Positions 4,518 to 42,189 of a stretch of 64,000 nucleotides of DNA are shown here, one piece after another (position 1 is the stretch's first letter; each line of letters starts with the position of its first letter). The notes under the pieces were generated by a model. The model was not told where the DNA came from, did not search any database, and worked only from the letters and a program-made list of their open reading frames with translations. Made by a program: the position numbers and the translations under genes. Origin of the DNA: an uncultured Candidatus Saccharibacteria bacterium (lineage in GTDB: Bacteria > Patescibacteriota > Minisyncoccia > Phycocordibacterales > UBA9973); assembly GCA_964484005.1 (NCBI GenBank), contig CAZADR010000002.1, positions 10,318 through 74,317 on the forward strand, given 5' to 3'.

Positions 4518-7370
4518 TTGTTGTATAATTTACAGCATATGATAACTACATTAAAAAGCAGGTTTTTATTATTAATATTTGTTTTTTCTTTTGTAACTTT
4601 TTTAGGAATTTCCGACAAGGCCAACGCTATGGTTGATTCTAGTGGAAATATTTTTTGTGCTAGAGAAAGTTATTGGGAATTAAACAAGACGGGTGCTGTT
4701 ACTGGAACTGGAGATGAGGGGAGTGGTTATACTACTTTAGTGCCACTACATTCTTCTTCGGATACTAGCTATGATACTATTAGCCCTTTTACGGCTGGCG
4801 CCACTCTCACATATCATCGTCGCTGGGTTGGGACTGAGCCAATATCACCAAGTACTTGGAATAGTTCTTGGACTACAGAAACCTGTACCACGGGTCCACT
4901 AGATGGAAATAAATGCTCTGTGAGTGTCAGTGGTGGTTTTTACCTTAATCCCGCATACAGCGGTGGAGGTCAGGCATATGATATTTATGGTGAGCCTGCA
5001 TGTATAGAAGATGGATATGCTGGTGTTGCTTATAGTTCACCAAATAGGATAAGTGCAGGATATACTGTAAATGCAACTGTTTCCGGGGTTGGGGGATCAC
5101 CTACACCTCTTTCTCAGTCAGTAGCTGCTAACGGCACCACAAAATTTACCTTAACTCCAAGTTCTTCTTATATTGTAAATAAAGATGATGTTACTAAAAA
5201 TTCTACTGGTTGTAATTTAGGAAACGAGGCAACCGCATGGTCTGGAAACGAGTACACTACTGGTACGATTAATGCTAATTGTACTTACACTTTTTCTTTT
5301 ACAGCTATTCCTGCTGTTACTGCTTCTTGTTCCGTCTCAAGTCCGGTGGCATCTGGGGTAAATCCAAGCATTACTTTTACCACAAATTCAAGTTCAAACA
5401 ATTGTTATGTTCGTAACGACAATATTGCCTTTGGTTTTTCTCCTCAACCTGGAACAGGAGTTTCTTCTTCCGGAACAGTCTATCAGCCTGGAGTTCAGAC
5501 AGCGGGCTCTCACCAAGGCTCAATATATTGTCAAAATTCAGCCAATACAGCAAATAGTGGCTGGCAATATTGTCCGTATACAGTGAGTGCACCAGCTATT
5601 CCCGCTACTCCCACAGGTCTTACCGCTACAGCAAGCTCCTGTGGAACTGGAACGATAAATGTATCTTGGAGTGCATCTGCTGGTGCAACAAGTTACACCC
5701 TTAAAGATGGAGCTACTGTTATTTATTCTGGAGCTTCTACTTCTTATTCTCATATTGGTCTAGTTGCAGGTTCTAGTCATAGTTACACTGTTTCTGCTTC
5801 AAACGCTGCGGGTTCATCAGCATATTCAGCTGCTGTTTCAAGAACTGCTCCAGCAGCTTGTGCTCCAACCGACGCTTGTGGTAATGGTAGTAGCTCTTTT
5901 CCTAGATTAACTGAACCGACAACTAATCCAACTGCTTGTAATCCAGGAGTGTATGCAAACTCTCCAGCTGATACCACCACCTTGGGCGCTCAAGCTTGGA
6001 ATTGGTCTTGTGGCACGGTCACTTCCTGTTCTGCTCCCAAATATGGCTGTAGAGTAACGACTGACTCAAATTATAGTCTTCCTCAATATGGACCAACTGG
6101 ACCAAACAACAATTATGGTTGCGCTGGTACTTGTGCAAACGGGGGAACAGATTATTCTACCTGTACACCTCCAGTTGGTATGTCTGGAACCTTGACCACT
6201 CCTAGCTGTACGATTGCTTCCGGGTCCAGCACTTGTACCACGACTGTCTCTTGGACAGTAACTAATCCTGTAGTAGTCGGCGGCTCTTCAGTCACTTCTT
6301 CATATCCTAGTGCTGGTACAGTCGTCGCTCCTCCAGTCAGTACTGGAACTGCAGATTCAGGTACAAAAACAGGTGTAACTATTCCATATAGTTCCAGGAC
6401 TTTCTATCTTTACAACAACAATGTTCAATTAAATACAGGCACAGCTAACGCTACCTGCGCTACAGGTTCAGCCTGGAACGGAACCATCTGTTATACAGCA
6501 CCCGCTCTTCCTGATTTGACAGCCGCTTCTACTACTCCTTCTACTGCTGTAAAAAATGAAGCCAAAACTTTTTCTTCAATCGTTACAAACATTGGAGCTG
6601 CAGATACTGGTGCATCTTTCTCAAACTTCTTTCAAGTGTGTAATGTAGGAGGAGGATGTGCAACTCCAACAGATCTAGCTCCTACTACCATGACAGCTTT
6701 GGCTGGTGGAGCGACCGGTACGGCCACCAAAGATTACACCTTTACCTCTGTCGGAACATTTTCTGTTCGAGCTTGTGCAGACAAGACAAACTCTGCTTCT
6801 CTTGGTGTAATTAACGAAGGGACCATGGAAGGCAACAACTGTGGAAATTGGGCTAATGTTACTGTTTCCGATACCCCAACTCCACCTTCCAATGAAGCCC
6901 CCGTCATCACCATCTGGGCTACTCCAACTTCTGGTACCGTGAATATTGTCAAACCTACTATTCTCTGGAGTGTCGACAATGATCCGACATCTTGTGCGGC
7001 AAGTGAAGACTGGTTAGGTAGTCGAAATTACAGTGGAGCTCAAACTCAAGAACCAGCCTTAAATCAAATTAAAACTTACCGTTACACATTAATCTGCTCC
7101 AATGCTTATGGTAGTGATGAAGCTACTGCTACGGTCGCAGTGTCTGGAACTGCCTCTGGAGTAAGTATTAGTGTAAATCCTACCTCCATCTATGCTGGAG
7201 ATTCAGCCACTCTCACTTGGTCAGGCGCAGGAGCTTGTACTTATAACTTTGATACTGGTTCTAATATTGTAACTCCAAATACGACCACTACTTACACTCT
7301 TACTTGTGATGGTGTATCTTCTAGTGCTACATTGATAGTGAAGAAGAAACCGATATTTATTGAGGATTAG
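4518..7370 (+). CDS. Large secreted Cys/Thr/Ser/Gly-rich surface protein (likely start 4539, MITTLKSRFLLL signal peptide)
   Basis: Signal peptide, low-complexity T/S/G/C-rich composition, and an extended -10 TGTTGTATAAT upstream. The C-terminal ~460 aa are identical to the product of 35386..38112. Confidence 0.7.
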   Translation: MLYNLQHMITTLKSRFLLLIFVFSFVTFLGISDKANAMVDSSGNIFCARESYWELNKTGAVTGTGDEGSGYTTLVPLHSSSDTSYDTISPFTAGATLTYHRRWVGTEPISPSTWNSSWTTETCTTGPLDGNKCSVSVSGGFYLNPAYSGGGQAYDIYGEPACIEDGYAGVAYSSPNRISAGYTVNATVSGVGGSPTPLSQSVAANGTTKFTLTPSSSYIVNKDDVTKNSTGCNLGNEATAWSGNEYTTGTINANCTYTFSFTAIPAVTASCSVSSPVASGVNPSITFTTNSSSNNCYVRNDNIAFGFSPQPGTGVSSSGTVYQPGVQTAGSHQGSIYCQNSANTANSGWQYCPYTVSAPAIPATPTGLTATASSCGTGTINVSWSASAGATSYTLKDGATVIYSGASTSYSHIGLVAGSSHSYTVSASNAAGSSAYSAAVSRTAPAACAPTDACGNGSSSFPRLTEPTTNPTACNPGVYANSPADTTTLGAQAWNWSCGTVTSCSAPKYGCRVTTDSNYSLPQYGPTGPNNNYGCAGTCANGGTDYSTCTPPVGMSGTLTTPSCTIASGSSTCTTTVSWTVTNPVVVGGSSVTSSYPSAGTVVAPPVSTGTADSGTKTGVTIPYSSRTFYLYNNNVQLNTGTANATCATGSAWNGTICYTAPALPDLTAASTTPSTAVKNEAKTFSSIVTNIGAADTGASFSNFFQVCNVGGGCATPTDLAPTTMTALAGGATGTATKDYTFTSVGTFSVRACADKTNSASLGVINEGTMEGNNCGNWANVTVSDTPTPPSNEAPVITIWATPTSGTVNIVKPTILWSVDNDPTSCAASEDWLGSRNYSGAQTQEPALNQIKTYRYTLICSNAYGSDEATATVAVSGTASGVSISVNPTSIYAGDSATLTWSGAGACTYNFDTGSNIVTPNTTTTYTLTCDGVSSSATLIVKKKPIFIED

Positions 7371-9906: not shown

Positions 9907-10383
9907 ATGATCATTTTTCTTAATGGCTCAATAAATGCAGGGAAAAGTACAGTTGCTAAAATATTAGCAACAAAACTTTTGAATACTGCTTTGGTAGAAA
10001 TTGATTCTTTAAGGGAAATGATTGACTGGATACCCATAGACCAGGCTGTGCCGATAAACCTGGAAAATGCTATTTCGGTAATAAAGAATTTTATAAAAAG
10101 AAATTTAAATGTAATTGTCCCATATCCTTTATCTCAAGATAATTATGATTATGTTGCAGGAGAACTAAAAGACATTAATACTAAAGTTTTCTTTTTTACC
10201 CTTGCTCCAAAACTCGAAGCGATACTAGGAAATAGGGGAGAAAGAGAGTTGGGCAAAAATGAGAGTGAAAGAATTAAGCATCATTATGATGTTGGTATCC
10301 ACAACCCATCTTTTGGGGAAATTATTGATAATACTAATCAAACCCCAGAAGAAACAGCGAAAGAAATATTAAAAAATCTATGA
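9907..10383 (+). CDS. P-loop kinase (chloramphenicol-phosphotransferase-like / AAA family)
   Basis: Walker A NGSINAGKSTVAKIL. The start is chosen at the in-frame ATG at 9907 (MIIFLNGS) rather than the track start at 9826, which overlaps the upstream gene. Confidence 0.55.
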   Translation: MIIFLNGSINAGKSTVAKILATKLLNTALVEIDSLREMIDWIPIDQAVPINLENAISVIKNFIKRNLNVIVPYPLSQDNYDYVAGELKDINTKVFFFTLAPKLEAILGNRGERELGKNESERIKHHYDVGIHNPSFGEIIDNTNQTPEETAKEILKNL

Positions 10384-16404: not shown

Positions 16405-17664
16405 CTATTTAGTTCCATCTCGCCAACCAGCCATATATTTTTTTTGAGTTTCTGTGAGTTTATCTATGGTTGTGCCTAGGCTGTGTAACTTTAGGGTGGC
16501 TATCTTTCTATCTAAAATTTCTGGCAAGACATGTACGGCGTTTGAGAGCTTCCCTTTATTTTTTAAAATATATTCTGCTGCTAAAGCTTGATTGGCAAAG
16601 CTCATGTCCATCACCGAGGCAGGGTGCCCCTCTGCACTACCGAGATTTACGAGTCTGCCACCAGCGAGCACAAAGATAGTTTTTCCATTCTTCATGGTAT
16701 AGGCCTCTACAAAGTCTCGCAAAGTTTTTTTGTTTTTCGTCATTTTTTGAAGTGAAACTAAATCAATCTCTACATCAAAGTGTCCAGAGTTTGAAATAAC
16801 ACAACCATCTTTTATATTGTGAAACGTTTCACTTCCGACGACACTTGTGTTTCCTGTGACGGTACAGATAAAGTCTGCAATTTTTGCCGCATCCGTCATC
16901 GGCATCACCCTGAAGCCATCTAGGAGCGCCTCGATGGCTTTGATTGAATCTATTTCTGTGACTATAACATTTGCCCCCATGCCTCGGGCCCGCATCGCTA
17001 GGCCTTTACCACACCACCCATAACCAGCGACTACAAAGACAGAGCCCGCAATTAATTTATTGGTAGCACGAATTATTCCGTCCAAAGTAGATTGTCCTGT
17101 GCCGTAGCGGTTGTCGAAAAAGTGCTTTGTCATAGAATCATTTACTGCGACGACGGGGAAGAGAAGTGTGCCTTCTTTTTCCATAGATTTTAATCTAGAG
17201 ACTCCGGTGGTGGTCTCTTCTGTGCCACCGATTATTTTTTGTATTTGATTTTGTTTCTTAGTGTGAAGTTCCCCCACAAGGTCTGCGCCATCATCCATGG
17301 TCATGCTTGGATTCATATCCAACACATTGTGCAAGTGCTCAAAATATTCTTTTTTACTTTCTCCCTTTTTTGCGAAGACTGGAATACCAAAATTTTTCAC
17401 CAAGGCTGCCGCCACATCATCTTGAGTGGAGAGAGGGTTTGAGGCACAGAGACCGACAGTGGCCCCGCCCTCTTTGAGGGCGATCATAAGGTTTGCCGTC
17501 TCGGCAGTAACATGTAAGCAGGCTCCGATGGTGACCCCCTTGAAAGGCTTTGATTTTTTAAAGTCGGCCGAGATGCCGGAGAGGACAGGCATATCTCGTT
17601 TGGCCCACTCTATCTTAATCAGGCCCTTTGGAGCTAGATTTATATCTTTTATGTTATGTTTCAT
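16405..17664 (-). CDS. ahcY: Adenosylhomocysteinase
   Basis: NAD-binding GYGWCGKGLAMRARGMGANVIVTEIDSIKA and overall SAH hydrolase architecture; 419 aa. Confidence 0.9.
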   Translation of the reverse strand: MKHNIKDINLAPKGLIKIEWAKRDMPVLSGISADFKKSKPFKGVTIGACLHVTAETANLMIALKEGGATVGLCASNPLSTQDDVAAALVKNFGIPVFAKKGESKKEYFEHLHNVLDMNPSMTMDDGADLVGELHTKKQNQIQKIIGGTEETTTGVSRLKSMEKEGTLLFPVVAVNDSMTKHFFDNRYGTGQSTLDGIIRATNKLIAGSVFVVAGYGWCGKGLAMRARGMGANVIVTEIDSIKAIEALLDGFRVMPMTDAAKIADFICTVTGNTSVVGSETFHNIKDGCVISNSGHFDVEIDLVSLQKMTKNKKTLRDFVEAYTMKNGKTIFVLAGGRLVNLGSAEGHPASVMDMSFANQALAAEYILKNKGKLSNAVHVLPEILDRKIATLKLHSLGTTIDKLTETQKKYMAGWRDGTK

Positions 17665-17928
17665 GTTTCTATCTTAACATAAAAATCTAGATACTTGCCT
17701 CTAAAAATTAACATGGTATTATAATTCAAAATCAATGAGTGAAACGAATATGATTTTCTTTACCCTGTGAAATATTTTGAGTACAAAAAGAACATTTGTA
17801 TAAAATAGGTAAAAGAAGACCATTGAGCTATAATAATGGGTATATAAATTAAATTATTAGATTAAAAGACAAATGTTATTTCACGGGGTGGCGATTTATA
17901 TAGTCGCTTCGCTCCCTATAAATCAACC

Positions 17929-18285
17929 ATGTTAGACAAGAAAAAAATTAAAGAAAAATTAGAAAAAGAAAGAGACGATTTACTAGAACAAATGAAAGGC
18001 ATGGGCAAGCTTAATGCCGAGACAGGTGAATGGGAAACAATTCCAGAAGAAATTGATTTTCCAGAGTCAGATGAAAATGACAAAGCCGACAGGTTTGAAG
18101 ACTTTGAAGCTAGGAGCTCTATGATGCGAACCTTGGAGCCAAGATTAAAAAATATTTTGAAAGCACTCAAAGGACTCAGTCGAGATTCTTTTGGTAAATG
18201 TGAAGTTTGCAAAAAAGATATTGAGATGACCCGTCTAGAGGCAAACCCTGCAGCTCGAACCTGTAAGAAGCACTTAGAAGAATAA
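17929..18285 (+). CDS. DksA/TraR-family zinc-finger-like protein
   Basis: Coiled-coil N-terminus and C-terminal CEVC...TCKKH zinc-finger-like motif. Confidence 0.45.
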   Translation: MLDKKKIKEKLEKERDDLLEQMKGMGKLNAETGEWETIPEEIDFPESDENDKADRFEDFEARSSMMRTLEPRLKNILKALKGLSRDSFGKCEVCKKDIEMTRLEANPAARTCKKHLEE

Positions 18286-18291
18286 CCTAAG

Positions 18292-19842
18292 GTGGCATTT
18301 GCAAAAGTATACTCCGCGCAAGTAAGCTTACTCTCGGGAGCTATAGTAACTATCGAAGTAGACCTGTCCAGAGGACTGCATTCTTTTAGTGTCGTCGGAC
18401 TGCCTGATAAAGCGGTGGACGAATCGAAAGACAGAGTGAGTGGAGCGATAAAAAATTCTGGTTTTCAATCTCCTAAAGCCAAGAACCAAAAAATAATAGT
18501 ATCACTTTCACCGGCCGACTTAAAAAAAGAGGGGCCGTTTTTTGATTTAGCTATTGCTCTTTCTTATATGTTGGCGGCGGGGGATATAAAATTTGATTCG
18601 GAAAAGAAAATATTTTTAGGGGAACTCGGACTAGATGGCACACTACGGAGGATTCGTGGAGCTTTACCACTCGCCCAAGAAGCCAAGCGAATGGGATTTG
18701 AAGAAATATATTTACCAAAAGAAAATGCGGTGGAGGCGGCTTTGGTGGAAGGTATAAAAATATTTGGTGCTGAAAGCTTGAAAGAGGTGGTTGAACACAT
18801 AGATGAAGGCAAAAAAGAATTACAAAAACAATTAAATAAAATTTTAATTCAACCTCAGACAAAAATAAATTATAAAAAAGAAATAGCTCGGACGGACTTT
18901 GCAGATATTCGTGGACAAGAAGGTGCCAAGCGCGGGCTCGAGATAGCTGCGGCCGGCGGACACAATATCGCCATGTATGGTCCACCGGGTACAGGCAAGA
19001 CGATGCTCGCTAGAGCTTTCTCTCAGCTCTTACCAGATTTAAGTATTGAAGAAGTTTTAGAAATCACTGGCATACATTCTGTAGCGGGAAGCACTAGGGG
19101 GGAGCTCGTTTGCTTTTCTCCTTTTCGTGCTCCGCACCACACTGCTTCTTATGTTTCTATTATTGGTGGAGGAACTTTTCCAAAACCGGGAGAAGTGACT
19201 CTCGCGCACAGGGGAGTGCTTTTTCTAGATGAGTTTCCTGAATTTGAAAAAAGAGTCATCGAATCTTTGCGTCAGCCACTCGAAGACAACATTGTCTCTA
19301 TCTCTCGCGCCAAAGGCACGGCTGTGTTTCCTTCAAATTTTATTTTAGTAGCAGCAATGAATCCTTGTCCATGTGGAAACTCTGGCAACAAACAAAAAGC
19401 CTGCATCTGTAAACCTTCAGATCTAGATAGATATAAGAGAAAGCTTTCTGGGCCGATTGTGGACCGTATTGATCTCTGGGTCTCTGTCGGAAATGTGGAT
19501 TACAAGAAACTCGGGGGAGAGGGCACTGGTGAAAAAAGTGAAAAGATAAAAGAGAGGGTGACAAGGGCGCGAGAAATTCAAAAAGATAGATTTAAAAAAT
19601 TTGAAAAAGATATCAAGACGAATAGTGAAATGAATGTAAAAGATTTGGGCACCATGGTGATACTCGATGGAAAAGTAAGGGACTTACTCGATGACAGCGC
19701 TGAACGACTTTCCTTGTCTGCGAGAGCATATCATCGAGTCTTAAAGATAGCTCGCACTATTGCCGACCTAGAAAACTCTCCAAACGTAGAAGCACATCAT
19801 ATCCTAGAAGCTATACAATATAGGCCGAAAGTGAATCAGTAA
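18292..19842 (+). CDS. comM: YifB/ComM-family Mg-chelatase-like AAA+ ATPase (GTG start)
   Basis: GPPGTGKTMLARAF Walker A, LFLDEFPEF Walker B, plus Lon-like N-terminal and C-terminal domains. Confidence 0.85.
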   Translation: MAFAKVYSAQVSLLSGAIVTIEVDLSRGLHSFSVVGLPDKAVDESKDRVSGAIKNSGFQSPKAKNQKIIVSLSPADLKKEGPFFDLAIALSYMLAAGDIKFDSEKKIFLGELGLDGTLRRIRGALPLAQEAKRMGFEEIYLPKENAVEAALVEGIKIFGAESLKEVVEHIDEGKKELQKQLNKILIQPQTKINYKKEIARTDFADIRGQEGAKRGLEIAAAGGHNIAMYGPPGTGKTMLARAFSQLLPDLSIEEVLEITGIHSVAGSTRGELVCFSPFRAPHHTASYVSIIGGGTFPKPGEVTLAHRGVLFLDEFPEFEKRVIESLRQPLEDNIVSISRAKGTAVFPSNFILVAAMNPCPCGNSGNKQKACICKPSDLDRYKRKLSGPIVDRIDLWVSVGNVDYKKLGGEGTGEKSEKIKERVTRAREIQKDRFKKFEKDIKTNSEMNVKDLGTMVILDGKVRDLLDDSAERLSLSARAYHRVLKIARTIADLENSPNVEAHHILEAIQYRPKVNQ

Positions 19843-19847
19843 GTTAT

Positions 19848-20163
19848 CCCCCACACCTTTCATTTTATAACTTCAGATCATATTATTTTTTATGTATTAT
19901 TTATATATTCTAAAAAGCCTTAAAGACGAAAAATTATATGTTGGTTCGACCAATGATCTGAAGCGAAGACTTTCGGAACACAACAATGGACTTAATCGTT
20001 CAACAAAAGCAAGGCGTCCATTTGAACTTAGATATTATGAAGCTTGTACTAATGAAAGTGATGCCCGAACTAGAGAATATAACCTCAAGAAAGATGGAAA
20101 AGCACTTGGGCAGCTTAAAAGACGAATTTCCGAAAGTCTTAAATAAAATAAAAGGTGTGGGGG
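19848..20163. mobile_element. Miniature GIY-YIG element: 13-bp terminal inverted repeats CCCCCACACCTTT / AAAGGTGTGGGGG flanked by direct TTAT
   Basis: IRs at 19848-19860 and 20151-20163 enclose the 84-aa GIY-YIG ORF. A near-identical copy lies at 32023-32340. Confidence 0.5.
19892..20146 (+). CDS. Small GIY-YIG nuclease-family protein
   Basis: YLYIL..LYVGSTNDLKRRLSEHN matches the GIY-YIG (URI) domain; 84 aa. Confidence 0.75.
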   Translation: MYYLYILKSLKDEKLYVGSTNDLKRRLSEHNNGLNRSTKARRPFELRYYEACTNESDARTREYNLKKDGKALGQLKRRISESLK

Positions 20164-20181
20164 TTATCCACAGAAGGGTTG

Positions 20182-21187: not shown

Positions 21188-21226
21188 AATAAAAAATCCC
21201 CACTGAAGGGGATTTTTTATTTTTTA
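21188..21226. terminator. Bidirectional rho-independent terminator between lexA and hup
   Basis: AAAAAATCCCC-ACTGAA-GGGGATTTTTTATTTTTT. Confidence 0.7.
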
Positions 21227-28456: not shown

Positions 28457-28495
28457 AAATGATTTTTAACGAACATTGTGAGTATAAAAATCTTT

Positions 28496-28558
28496 ACCCC
28501 GTTAAATATAAAATCTTTAGATTTTTAATTTTGCTTTGCAAAATTTATTTAATGGGGT
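28496..28558. repeat. Short palindromic element (ACCCCGTTAAATA ... TATTTAATGGGGT)
   Basis: 13-bp imperfect inverted repeat around a 36-bp spacer that contains AATCTTTAGATTT; member of a family (see 17752-17889, 29830-29894, 29945-30231). Confidence 0.5.
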
Positions 28559-28602
28559 TAGTAAAATATATTCGCTATGCTCATTATTGTTACTAATAAT
28601 TT

Positions 28603-29793
28603 TTATTCTTCTTTGACCTCTACTTTTTCTCCATCAGTGCTGGCTACTTCTTTGCCATCACCTTTGATATCTATTCTCCATCCTGTCAATTTTGCAGCGA
28701 GACGAACATTTTGTCCACCCTTGCCGATAGCGAGAGAGAGCTGGTCATTGCCTACTTCTACTGTCGCTTTGTGTTCTTTTTCATCTATTTCAATTGAAAC
28801 AACTTTGGCCGGAGAAAGAGAATTTGATACAAAGACTTTTGGGTCTTCGGACCAAGGAATTATATCTATTTTTTCACCTGAAAGTTCTCCAGTAATAGTA
28901 TTTACTCTGGTTCCTTTTTGTCCAACACAAGAACCCACCGCATCGATGTGTTCATCGTTTGAAAAAACGGCTATCTTTGAACGAGCGCCCGCTTCGCGAG
29001 CGACTGATTTTATTTCCACAACTTCGCTCTCTATCTCAGGAGCTTCCATTGCAAAAAGTTTCTCTATAAATTTTGGATGAGTGCGTGAAAGACGCAAGTT
29101 TATTCCTCTTGGTGTGTCTTCTACGCTGTAGAGATATGCGCGGATACGCTGACTGCGTTGCCAATATTCTCCTGGAATTTGTTCTTCGGCAGGGAGGATA
29201 CCGGTAGCTCTGTTGAAATCAACATAAATATTTCCGCGTTCTACTTTTTGTACGATTCCAGAAATAATTTCGCCTTCTTTGGTTCCATATTCATCTATGA
29301 TAGAAGTGCGTTCTGCTTCACGAATCTTTTGGATGATGACTTGCTTTGCAGTCTGAGCGGCGATGCGTCCATAATCGTCTTTGGCTTCAAGAGGAAAAAT
29401 GATTTCATCATTGAGCTCTGCCCCCTTTTTTATTTTTTTTGCGTCTTCTAAAAGAATGTGATGTTCGGGGTTGAAGTGCACGCGTTCATCGCCATCATCT
29501 TTGATAGAGTATTCCACTTCTTTTATGTTTTTTTTGTGACCGACAGTTTCTTCTTCAACAGGTTCATCCATGATAGCGATACTTTCATCTACCACAATTT
29601 TTACCTGATAGAAATCTGTCGCACCGGTTTCCATATCAAATTTTGAACGGATTATTTGTCCTTTCTTGCCGTAATCTTTTTTGTAAGCGGCCGCCATGGC
29701 TTGTTCGATGGCTTCCAATATTTTTTCTTTTGGTATTTTTCTCTCTTCTTCTAGTTGCTCTAGTGCTGATTTGAATGTTTTTATATCTAACAT
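28603..29793 (-). CDS. nusA: Transcription termination/antitermination factor NusA
   Basis: MLDIKTFKSALEQLEEERKIPKEKILEAIEQA N-terminus, S1 and two KH domains; 396 aa. Confidence 0.85.
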   Translation of the reverse strand: MLDIKTFKSALEQLEEERKIPKEKILEAIEQAMAAAYKKDYGKKGQIIRSKFDMETGATDFYQVKIVVDESIAIMDEPVEEETVGHKKNIKEVEYSIKDDGDERVHFNPEHHILLEDAKKIKKGAELNDEIIFPLEAKDDYGRIAAQTAKQVIIQKIREAERTSIIDEYGTKEGEIISGIVQKVERGNIYVDFNRATGILPAEEQIPGEYWQRSQRIRAYLYSVEDTPRGINLRLSRTHPKFIEKLFAMEAPEIESEVVEIKSVAREAGARSKIAVFSNDEHIDAVGSCVGQKGTRVNTITGELSGEKIDIIPWSEDPKVFVSNSLSPAKVVSIEIDEKEHKATVEVGNDQLSLAIGKGGQNVRLAAKLTGWRIDIKGDGKEVASTDGEKVEVKEE

Positions 29794-29829
29794 AATGATT
29801 TTTAAGGAATGTAATGACTATAAAAATCA

Positions 29830-29894
29830 TTACCCTGTGAAATGAAATCTTTCAGATTTCAGCTTTTTCGAAGAAAAAGTTATTTCACTGGGGT
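29830..29894. repeat. Short palindromic element (TACCCTGTGAAAT ... ATTTCACTGGGG) with internal hairpin
   Basis: Terminal IRs of 11-12 bp with an inner AGCTTTTTCGAAGAAAAAGT hairpin; same family as 28496-28558 and 17752-17889. Confidence 0.5.
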
Positions 29895-29942
29895 TGTAAA
29901 CTTACAACCACTTCTCTTGTTAATTAATTTATAAACAAATTA

Positions 29943-30221
29943 TTACCCTGTTAAATATGATTTGAGCCGATTTCGCAAAAACTGTTTTCCGTATGTTGTC
30001 TTTAGATATTCTTCACGATGCATTGCATCATGTTTATCTAAACAAGCTTCGGAATAAATCAGTTCTAATGGCCTTCGATCTTTTGTTGAACTAACTTGAC
30101 CTTTGCAATGTTGCTCAAATCTAGATTTCAAATCATTCGTATATCCGACATATAGTTTTTTGTCTTTTTGGGACTTTAAAACATATATGTAGTAAAACTT
30201 TTTTATTTGATTTGAAATCAT
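29943..30221 (-). CDS. Small GIY-YIG nuclease-family protein
   Basis: YYIYVLKS..KLYVGYTNDLKSRFEQH is a GIY-YIG domain; 92 aa; divergent paralog of 19892..20146. Confidence 0.7.
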   Translation of the reverse strand: MISNQIKKFYYIYVLKSQKDKKLYVGYTNDLKSRFEQHCKGQVSSTKDRRPLELIYSEACLDKHDAMHREEYLKTTYGKQFLRNRLKSYLTG

Positions 30222-30231
30222 TTAACAGGGT
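29945..30231. mobile_element. Miniature GIY-YIG element with 12-bp terminal IRs ACCCTGTTAAAT / ATTTAACAGGGT
   Basis: IRs at 29945-29956 and 30220-30231 exactly bracket the 92-aa GIY-YIG ORF; the IR sequence is related to the ORF-less palindromic elements nearby. Confidence 0.5.
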
Positions 30232-30520
30232 TTAAAAAAATATAATCGCTTTGCTTCTTATTTTTTTAAAAATAAAAGCCCTGTTTCTGACAGGACTCAT
30301 ATATAAGGAGCATAGCACAAAGCTTGTTTTAATGCAATGGACTAGGTTTGACAAAAAGGGGAAAGTATTGCTAAGATGTGTATAACAAGGGTTCCTTAAC
30401 AACTAACCCCCAAGTCCTATTGATTTTATTGTCTTTTGGGTCAATAAAGTTAAATGAAAGTTCTGGATGAACTTTCAACCTAAGATACAATAGAAAATAT
30501 GGGCAAGAAAGGAGGTAGTT

Positions 30521-30724
30521 ATGACTGAAAAGCATTGGGTGAATGAAGACCATTACCGCACCGTCTCAAGTGACGGCAAGACATCTTACCTCTTCAAGGA
30601 CGACGGAGGATCCTTCTTCACCGATACGTGCGTGGAAGTCACAGACCATCACAGTGATGGGACGACCGATGCGTACGAACCCGACAACTCCCTTTTCAGC
30701 GATGGAAAGGGAGATCACAAGTAG
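30521..30724 (+). CDS. Small acidic hypothetical protein, GC-rich
   Basis: 67-aa ORF with AGGAGG SD 6 nt upstream, a TTGACA-N18-TAAGAT promoter about 150 nt upstream, and a terminator hairpin at 30755-30790; GC is clearly above the local background. Confidence 0.4.
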   Translation: MTEKHWVNEDHYRTVSSDGKTSYLFKDDGGSFFTDTCVEVTDHHSDGTTDAYEPDNSLFSDGKGDHK

Positions 30725-30793
30725 TAGGCTTTCGGAAGATGGCCTACACATAAAGGTGGTTCATTCGTGAGCCACCTTTATTTTTATTAAACT

Positions 30794-31939: not shown

Positions 31940-32022
31940 ATAAATATTTTAAATGCTAAATATGCTTGTTCAAATACAAAAATTACCCCCAAACCCCATA
32001 TTTTGCTGGTTTTAAAGGTTAT

Positions 32023-32340
32023 CCCCCACACCTTTCGTTTTATACCCTTAAATCATATAATGGCTGTTATGTATTACATGTATGTTCTAAAAAGTCTTAA
32101 AGATGAGAAATTATATATTGGTTCTACTGATGATTTAAGGCGAAGACTTTCGGAACACAACAAGGGACTTAATCGTTCAACTAAAGCAAGACGTCCATTT
32201 GAACTTCGTTACTATGAGGCTTGTGCTGACGAACGTGATGCTAGAACAAGGGAATATAATTTAAAAAAAGATGGAAAAGCGCTTGGGCAACTTAAACGAA
32301 GAATCTCCGAAAGTCTTAAATAAAACAAAAGGTGTGGGGG
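32023..32340. mobile_element. Miniature GIY-YIG element (second copy of 19848..20163 type)
   Basis: IR CCCCCACACCTTT at 32023-32035 and AAAGGTGTGGGGG at 32328-32340, both with TTAT immediately outside; encloses a near-identical GIY-YIG ORF. Confidence 0.5.
32060..32323 (+). CDS. Small GIY-YIG nuclease-family protein
   Basis: Product nearly identical to 19892..20146 (MYYMYVLKSLKDEKLYIGSTDDLRRRLSEHN...); the track ORF 31907 start is too early and the real start is 32060 or 32069. Confidence 0.7.
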   Translation: MAVMYYMYVLKSLKDEKLYIGSTDDLRRRLSEHNKGLNRSTKARRPFELRYYEACADERDARTREYNLKKDGKALGQLKRRISESLK

Positions 32341-32369
32341 TTATTCACAGGATGTTCACAGTTCACTTG

Positions 32370-41652: not shown

Positions 41653-42189
41653 ATGAGATTTTTTCTAAAAAATAAAAAAAGTGGCTTTACCCCCACACCT
41701 TTTGGAAAAAAAGGTGTGAGCCTACAAAGTAGGCGGGGGTTTATGGCAGTTGAGATATTGGTGGCTGTGTCAATCATCACAGCTTCTGTTTTAGCCATGA
41801 TGGCAGTCTCTCAAAAATCAGTTTTTATTTCTAGGCAGTCTTTTCATTCTGCACAAGCAGCATTCTTGTTAGAAGAGGGAGCAGAGGCAATCAGAATATT
41901 TAGAGATGATGCATGGACCAATATTTCTAGTCTTACTCCATCCACAGATTATTATCCAACTTTTTCTGGTGGGACATGGGTTTTGAGTAGTACACCAAAC
42001 ACAGTTGGTATTTTTACTCGTACTGTCAGTATCGCCAGCGTAAATCGCGACGATACCTCAAAAGATATTTCAGAAGTGGGCACAGATGATATAGACACTA
42101 AGCTGATCACTGTTACAGTATCTTGGCCGGAGGGAGGGGTGACGGTCACTAAAACATTACAGTTTTACATAATGAATATTTTCTCATAA
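41653..42189 (+). CDS. Prepilin-type protein with unusually long leader
   Basis: ...SRRG|FMAVEILVAVSII: G at -1, E at +5, preceded by about 28 residues; the real start may be a downstream codon. Confidence 0.55.
   Translation: MRFFLKNKKSGFTPTPFGKKGVSLQSRRGFMAVEILVAVSIITASVLAMMAVSQKSVFISRQSFHSAQAAFLLEEGAEAIRIFRDDAWTNISSLTPSTDYYPTFSGGTWVLSSTPNTVGIFTRTVSIASVNRDDTSKDISEVGTDDIDTKLITVTVSWPEGGVTVTKTLQFYIMNIFS

Follow-up and report, generated by a model that had tools for sequence, protein, structure and literature searches.

A 64,000-nucleotide stretch of DNA from an uncultured Candidatus Saccharibacteria bacterium (positions 10,318 to 74,317 of contig CAZADR010000002.1, assembly GCA_964484005.1; this whole stretch is the window) raises the question of what the short inverted repeats are that recur in it as facing pairs, one of which encloses the gene of a small GIY-YIG nuclease. 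[quoted passage not shown] The evidence assembled here favors, with moderate confidence, the reading that they belong to a family of palindromic DNA repeats that can insert and that has a small nuclease of its own. The family is called family A, its copies in the window E1 to E4, and the nuclease gene, which lies in E4, G1 (Table 1). Copies without an open reading frame (ORF) are referred to as solos, and loci outside the window by numbers preceded by L.

It is clear that the inverted ends are a real feature of this DNA. All four pairs are present in convergent orientation, with the consensus TTY-ACCCYGTKAAAT ... ATTTMACRGGGT-RAA. In the window, the arm 14-mer with at most 2 mismatches has 9 matches versus 1.93 expected, a number that none of 100 shuffles reached; a shorter arm 10-mer with 1 mismatch shows no enrichment by itself (16 matches versus 20 expected), and the eight strongest matches coincide with the four convergent pairs. 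An nhmmer profile of the 47-nt arms matches these same eight sites with E-values of 4e-9 to 1e-3, and no further site of the window below E = 0.5. Given the 14-mer enrichment and the confinement of the arm profile to eight sites, a chance match was rejected. The pairing of the repeats stands as previously described, and so do the housekeeping neighbors, NusA (28603-29793, minus strand) and a ComM-like Mg-chelatase ATPase (18292-19842, plus strand); among the coordinates, only the first (17752) had been placed about 9 nt too far left.

The conserved inverted ends of the unit measure 12-15 nt and pair with each other. In this genome they continue outward for a further 25-30 nt (GAGCrAAGCGAnTATAwwww...ttACCC), giving imperfect terminal inverted repeats of approximately 40 nt, and this outer part is common to the solos and to the GIY-YIG-bearing copy. 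One arm position is variable: E1 and E3 have G/C there, whereas the pair is T/A in E2 and E4, which means that the arms match within an element and not within the genome. The unit comes in two forms, an ORF-less solo that is T-shaped when folded and a GIY-YIG-bearing copy, and their common arms and outer repeat support the assignment of both to one repeat family. E2 is predicted to fold into a three-way junction, with a closing stem built by the arms and two inner hairpins (z = -6.9), and E3 likewise into an arm-built closing stem and two inner hairpins (z = -4.8). The block AATCTTT(C)AGATTT, previously noted as shared by two copies, is the first inner hairpin of E2 and of E3.

In the nuclease-bearing form the gene is fused to the palindrome, given that the start codon of G1 is the final three bases of one arm (ACCCTGTTAAATG), and the other arm (TATTTAACAGGGTAA) encodes its C-terminus ..KSYLTG and the stop codon. 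The protein matches PF01541 over residues 10-79 (E = 1e-18, 67.8 bits versus a cutoff of 22.6), and by inspection the motif positions YIY, YVG, R34, H38, and E70/71 are all present. Its Pfam matches are of the GIY-YIG type only, with no added DNA-binding domain. The ratio of non-synonymous to synonymous substitution rates (dN/dS) among orthologues is 0.05-0.18, a value that indicates purifying selection on a functional gene. Homologues with 92% identity are found in metagenome-assembled genomes of Candidatus Nomurabacteria, by which the window is assigned to a Nomurabacteria-like member of the Patescibacteria, and others with 60-72% identity in Desulfobacterales, Marinifilum, Pirellulales, and Niabella. 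In the protein database there are 624 clusters of homologues, and among the best 120 of these the source-named ones are from Patescibacteria. The same arms bracket the ORF in approximately 18 of 21 homologous loci, which belong to several phyla. Where the arm sequence has changed in these loci, both sides are altered jointly and the inverted repeat is preserved; L022 carries the arms CCCCGTTAGACCT / AGGTCTAACGGGG and L015 the arms ACCCCGTGTAAT / ATTACACAGGGT, both read by eye in the flanks, and the inverted repeat of L023 is perfect over 20 bp.

Solos are abundant outside this genome. A scan of metagenomes for two family-A arms 20-50 nt apart, with the variable arm position left free, listed 122 matches (120 unique), and the number of exact matches is at least 120. 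By our own estimate, which assumes approximately 1e12 bases and uniform composition, a handful would be expected by chance. The same two-arm pattern has 0 matches in the IMG/VR viral contigs, and a viral origin was rejected on these grounds. Among the 120 unique solos listed, 81 fold with two hairpins and 35 with one, at a median z of -2.8, and the loops are mostly C-NNN-G triloops. The stem sequences diverge widely and their complementarity is kept. In 15 canonical solos of 58 nt, which had been pre-chosen for at least 11 of 14 inner pairs, 98.5% of the cells are paired, and 34 cells are changed on both sides versus 9.3 in shuffled sets, with 0 of 500 shuffles reaching 34; the covariation collapses in slid controls. 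At the variable position the two arms complement each other in 118 of the 122 listed solos, showing that the arms within one element pair or are copied from each other.

The flanks of the solos are conserved. TT occupies positions -3/-2 (95% and 92%) and AA positions +2/+3 (87% and 86%), and positions -1/+1 are mostly C..A (38) or T..G (36), which is one asymmetric configuration read from the two strands. The asymmetry does not depend on which inner hairpin comes first (Fisher p = 0.78); a preferred target (TTT^GAA), a tail of 2 nt that travels with the element, or an inverted interior may lie behind this. Solos also occur in tandem, in L113, L107, L131, and L106, with 2-nt junctions (GGGT-GA-ACCC, -TC-, -TT-), and in L131 the whole unit is duplicated head to tail. 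Short repeats of the type AATCTGCG / CGCAGATT adjoin solos in L042, L044, L050, L061, L070, L074, L096, L097, L132, and L147, and are also found in L018 (1260-1290 and 2040-2060) around the split gene described below; they may constitute another system of repeats or mark a neighborhood that the solos prefer.

The comparison of related loci supports the view that family A is DNA that can insert. The site of E2 in the spacer between nusA and the H+-pyrophosphatase (PPase) gene is filled in the window and in L011 and empty in L019, L010, and L006, where the spacer measures 14-45 nt. At the same spot L008 (approximately 6497-6600) has an unrelated palindrome, CCCGTACAAAGT ... ACTTTGTACGGG, and different palindromic elements therefore use one spacer across genomes. 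E3 occurs in the window and also in L004, L005, and L006, and is missing from L008, L010, L011, L013, and L019, and the genomes that lack it have 40-43 nt from the GIY stop codon to the nusA ATG. In L018, a contig from Desulfobacterales, a GxxExxY gene is interrupted twice, first by a nuclease-bearing copy and then, after another 170 nt, by a solo of 103 nt. Removal of both inserts in silico yields a contiguous TIGR04256 match (profile 2-116 of 116, E = 8e-43), and the first junction, GTAT[ACC]CTG...GGGTGA[ACC]AGG, is precise except for a 3-nt ACC ambiguity.

Long ORFs contain 17 of the 122 listed solos (14%), and 16 of these 17 are read in one frame, xAC CCT GTT AAA ... TTT AAC RGG GTx, encoding the peptide (Y/H)PVKS..AG(I/V)SPKAK(L/Q)FNRV. 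The five host genes confirmed by Pfam are those of UvrC (with two insertions), an RsmI-type methylase, MurG, PPDK, and MurD. The lengths of solos outside ORFs are spread over all three residues modulo 3, and this, together with the single frame in ORFs, fits random insertion followed by selection, a course of events that has been proposed for Rickettsia palindromic elements. None of the family-A copies in the window lies within a gene, and the description of the repeats as intergenic is hence true of the window and untrue of the family overall. The likeness to MITEs also holds in large part, given that the copies form one family and are insertable; descent of the solos by deletion from the GIY-YIG-bearing copy is not supported. 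Solos as internally deleted nuclease genes (E3 read as MKSFRFQ..RRKSYFTG) were rejected, since only the 8 residues encoded by the arms align (E = 0.03), and the interiors hold no ORF remnant outside the arms. Because these interiors have covarying hairpins of their own, the ORF could equally be a passenger in an older palindrome.

A second repeat family in the window, family B, likewise combines GIY-YIG genes, G2 and G3, with an ORF-less element. The products of G2 and G3 are 89% identical to each other, and each is 60% identical to that of G1. The family-B solo of the window is part of the reading frame of ORF 41653-42189, close to its 5' end, with TTT at both junctions; this ORF has no Pfam match, and the sequence that follows the solo, RRGFMAVEILVAVSII, has by eye the look of a prepilin-type leader. 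Another family-B solo of this genome (L268, 18708-18750) is located approximately 8 kb beyond the right end of the window, in the TatD-rpsF spacer, and its flanks, GAGAGCAAAGC / TCTCTTTGCT, resemble the family-A outer repeat. There are thus 2 family-B and 3 family-A solos in approximately 84 kb of the genome. The sequence into which the right arm of family B continues, TTATCCACA / TTATTCACA, is similar to a DnaA box, probably by coincidence.

How such a family could spread may be pictured by analogy with the Ssn nucleases and their NTS hairpin repeats and with REP (repetitive extragenic palindromic) sequences and their RAYT enzymes. On this basis we infer that these repeats are bound and cut by the G1 product, that its substrate is single-stranded DNA (ssDNA), and that its cutting moves them. 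The nuclease would recognize the folded element on ssDNA and cut where the stem begins or close by, after which host replication or repair would propagate, exchange, or re-insert the palindrome; solos would be non-autonomous partners acted on in trans.

Several observations weigh against an insertable family served by its own nuclease. GIY-YIG nucleases hydrolyze DNA and perform no strand transfer, which leaves a complete transposition pathway unaccounted for. No consistent target-site duplication was found, with direct repeats at chance level in 121 solos. Identical nuclease proteins have one genomic context each (P0003 upstream of nusA, P0079 of rpsS) and no recent multi-locus copies of an identical nuclease were found, so that the gene-bearing copies look stable and not actively jumping. 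Family A has only 4 copies in approximately 84 kb of genome (the window and its flanks), with no further copy in the 20 kb beyond the window ends, and the 803 kb of metagenome loci that bear solos contain only 3 GIY-YIG genes, which are distant ones. The kinship with Ssn is also not close in sequence. Seven GIY-YIG proteins were taken from viral-collection contigs with exact NTS (at most 150 nt from the gene in five of them), and G1-G3 are 30-39% identical to these over 63-71 amino acids (31-47 bits), no closer than to the UPF0213 protein BH0048 (38-42 bits); for the NTS-flanked Ssn homologues the identity is 30-37%, or about 33% overall.

On a rival reading the palindrome is primary and has been spread by host replication or repair or by an unrelated transposase, the GIY-YIG ORF being a secondary, homing-type invader for which the arms serve as homology or as a translational control stem. 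We regard this as rather unlikely, although it accounts for solos that have no ORF remnants and that are far commoner and more diverse than gene-bearing copies. It would also explain distant GIY-YIG genes with other flanks, which mark the gene family as an opportunistic inserter. Such genes, 31-39% identical to G1, are found in L067 (5781-6032) and L131 (10492-10749), where the 5' half of a tRNA gene is directly repeated on either side of them, another style of insertion. The history of the nuclease gene fits the favored reading and can also be read in this sense. Comparing the window with L004-L019, the synonymous divergence (dS) of G1 is 0.3-0.8 and that of the adjacent nusA is saturated (0.34 and >3, respectively, for L004), and the trees of the two genes conflict, L011 grouping with L008 by GIY and with the window and L004 by nusA. 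This suggests exchange or re-invasion at a fixed locus, or, on the view of an invader, homing or gene conversion. Against an invader stand the start and stop codons that lie in the arms across phyla with compensatory changes, which point to long co-evolution of ORF and arms, and the second GIY-YIG clade of the window with arms and solos of its own, matching the pairing of Ssn nucleases with SRM repeats (Chenal et al. 2025, Nat Commun 16:2388; PMC11893778).

It is improbable, in our judgment, that the repeats are host-function elements with a domesticated nuclease, kept by selection and not by selfish spread. Their role would then be the control of incoming ssDNA, for which the proposal made for NTS/SsnA in Neisseria is a precedent (PMC11893778), or that of promoters or 5' leaders for housekeeping genes. 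Genes of the G1 clade do lie repeatedly 36-43 nt upstream of essential genes (nusA, rpsS), with the outer repeat reaching the ATG, and in L012 such a gene precedes an ORF whose N-terminus resembles by eye that of ribosomal protein L10. The gene order GIY1-nusA-PPase is kept in seven genomes, and the nuclease is under strong purifying selection. However, the outward TATAGT-like boxes of the outer repeat have no acceptable -35 and a scan for sigma-70-type promoters calls none of them, which makes a promoter carried by the outer repeat a minor possibility. Moreover, the outer end of E2 runs antisense into the 3' end of nusA, the orientation of metagenomic solos relative to flanking genes is near random (22:14 and 21:18), copies interrupt or lengthen coding sequences, and the sites are dispensable in close relatives.

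That the repeats function at the level of structured RNA, be it as a cis-regulatory motif, a site of RNA processing, or an intron-like insert taken out of transcripts, is very improbable indeed: a strong predicted fold, covarying stems, and two insertions in the L018 gene that would be harmless if removed from the RNA speak for it, but Rfam gives no match at gathering thresholds, and with E raised to 5 still none that falls on the elements, by which a known RNA family was rejected, the absence of orientation bias and of strand-specific G-T wobble in the stems argues against a strand-specific RNA role, the one frame of the in-ORF solos and the modulo-3 spread of the others point to translation and purifying selection and not to splicing, and nucleases of the Ssn type do not act on RNA (PMC11893778). 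A strand-specific function was also rejected, the flank asymmetry and the G-T wobbles being uncorrelated with interior orientation or gene strand. The terminator or regulatory motif proposed earlier is not supported, since the stems are followed by no T-tract, no scanned terminator-like site has a stem built by the arms or the inner hairpins, orientation is near random, and copies lie within ORFs. A weak terminator call at 29892-29909 (tail ACTTCTCTTG) belongs to the outer part of E3. A canonical bidirectional intrinsic terminator between convergent genes (21191-21218, AAAAAATCCCCACTGAAGGGGATTTTTT) is unlike the elements; several weak, sub-threshold Rfam matches fall on it.

Table 1. Repeat elements of families A and B in the window, with their parts, genes, and neighbors.
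Feature	Position	Strand	Description
E1	17733-17918	none	ORF-less; arms 17761-17774 / 17877-17889; interior 102 nt
E1 arm profile matches	17733-17776 and 17873-17918
E1 neighbors			divergent: AdoHcy hydrolase 16405-17664 (-), dksA/traR-type zinc-finger gene 17929-18285 (+)
E2	28467-28586	none	ORF-less; arms 28495-28508 / 28546-28558
E2 inner hairpins	28510-28525 and 28527-28545		first hairpin AAAATCTTTAGATTTT
E2 neighbors			between nusA stop (28603) and H+-PPase start (28456)
E3	29802-29923	none	ORF-less; arms 29831-29843 / 29882-29894
E3 inner hairpins	29844-29860 and 29862-29880		first hairpin GAAATCTTTCAGATTTC
E3 outer hairpin	29811-29833		GTAATGA..TCATTAC
E3 neighbors			between GIY-YIG-bearing copy and nusA start (29793)
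E4	29915-30262	-	nuclease-bearing; arms 30219-30232 (with ATG) and 29944-29957 (..YLTG and stop)
E4 outer inverted repeat	30233-30262 and 29915-29943		first well kept, second degenerate
G1	29943-30221	-	GIY-YIG nuclease gene; 92 amino acids, single domain
Family B with G3	19846-20165	+	GIY-YIG gene 19892-20146, 84 amino acids, bracketed by ATCCCCCACACCTTT / AAAGGTGTGGGGGTT
Family B with G2	32021-32342	+	GIY-YIG gene 32060 or 32069 to 32323; inverted repeat ATCCCCCACACCTTT / AAAGGTGTGGGGGTT
Family-B ORF-less element	41686-41743	+	closing stem ACCCCC/GGGGGT and two hairpins

The surroundings of E4 contain further structures (30276-30377). A terminator-like hairpin on the minus strand (30276-30298) lies just upstream of G1, and the same hairpin is found again upstream of the G1 homologues in most Nomurabacteria-like loci, for example L004-L006, L008, L011, and L019. 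A strong promoter on the plus strand (30348-30377, TTGACA-18-TAAGAT with TG) faces ORF 30543-30770, which has no Pfam match. The interval 30262-30543 may hold an unannotated RNA. No tRNA genes were found in the window.

A palindromic repeat family with a cognate nuclease would matter in several respects. Patescibacteria have small genomes that are usually thought to be poor in repeats, and the family extends the nuclease/hairpin-repeat phenomenon to them. G1 and its folded substrate of approximately 60 nt form a defined candidate pair that could widen the set of sequence-specific ssDNA nucleases. On the mobility of the gene-plus-repeat unit, a question that the Ssn work left open (PMC11893778), the family offers comparative evidence in the form of filled and empty sites, a gene split by both forms, in-frame insertions, spread across phyla, and a nuclease history unlike that of its neighbor. 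A broader proposal, that Ssn-like nucleases mobilize a new class of T-shaped palindromic transposable elements, autonomous and non-autonomous, which cross phyla and invade essential genes in frame, is tentative and to be taken as possible rather than probable. If it were true, in-frame insertions would routinely add peptides of 16-23 amino acids to essential genes, and the occurrence of the inner part in either orientation relative to the ends, which recalls the flip/flop seen in the terminal hairpins of parvoviruses, would suggest a mechanism based on ssDNA hairpins.

Among known systems, bacterial MITEs such as the Correia elements of Neisseria are small, have terminal inverted repeats, are mainly intergenic, and vary in presence and absence between strains. 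Family A resembles them in its terminal inverted repeats (with a core of 12-15 nt) and in its element size of approximately 50-190 bp. It differs in that no parent insertion sequence with a DDE transposase was seen, the GIY-YIG nuclease being the only gene found between the arms, in the lack of a clear target-site duplication, and in an interior under structural selection. Unlike homing endonucleases of the I-TevI/Seg type, the protein encoded by G1 has no C-terminal DNA-binding domain, and it scores 23.8 bits against TIGR01453 (cutoff 56), over the N-terminal motif only.

REP/RAYT systems have a vertically stable gene, present once, between inverted short palindromic repeats, and REP repeats occur in the genome as non-autonomous copies, as singlets and doublets, with compensatory evolution of the stems. 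These features are shared with family A. The enzyme is here a GIY-YIG hydrolase and not an HUH/Y1 transposase (TnpA_REP), the GTAG/CGTC head of REP is lacking, and family-A elements are found in coding sequences as well. Rickettsia palindromic elements (RPEs), of approximately 100-150 nt, are in-frame inserts in housekeeping genes and are apparently translated; to our knowledge, they have no established cognate enzyme. Family A behaves similarly, with palindromes in frame within housekeeping genes that are apparently translated as extra peptide segments. Its elements are shorter (approximately 46-70 nt), the likeness is one of behavior, and the family may offer an enzyme link for peptide-encoding palindromes of the RPE kind. 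REP/RAYT, RPEs, and MITEs are thus each alike in part, and each fails at least one defining feature.

The closest known system to G1 and family A is that of Ssn with its NTS/SRM hairpin repeats. The Ssn paper was also the only one found in the literature on GIY-YIG proteins with REP, MITE, RPE, or Patescibacteria repeats. Among plasmids, the homologues of G1 are UPF0213/YazA-type matches only, and the Protein Data Bank gives only UPF0213 structures with weak E-values. [quoted passage not shown] The authors of that work note a likeness to insertion sequences and REP/RAYT, and list Rickettsia among the SRM-rich genomes (PMC11893778). The published SRM pattern HGTCWY..RNCYNB has 0 matches on both strands of the 64-kb window (0.1 in shuffles). 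In three NTS-carrying contigs (L198, L208, and L196), the GIY-YIG ORF has N-terminal extensions, SFPRKRESS / FPRRRGSS, and that of L198 is the in-frame translation of the NTS/dRS3 hairpin; the repeat sequence could thus be read into protein in the NTS system too, if the longer ORF call gives the real start.

Both systems have a single-domain GIY-YIG protein of approximately 90-100 amino acids, a gene bracketed by an inverted, hairpin-forming repeat that also has ORF-less copies (here 3 of family A and 2 of family B in approximately 84 kb of the genome, and at least 120 of family A across metagenomes), and separate nuclease clades paired with separate repeat sequences, here families A and B. 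They differ in architecture, given that the gene is here nested in a single palindrome whose half-sites supply its start and stop codons, whereas that of Ssn lies between two complete hairpins, and that the solos are T-shaped, with a closing stem and two hairpins, whereas NTS are single hairpins. They also differ in placement, with 14% of the listed metagenomic solos in frame within genes against 2% of NTS within genes, in the direct evidence of insertion that the comparison of loci gives here, and in hosts, which here include Patescibacteria, unmentioned in the main text of the Ssn paper.

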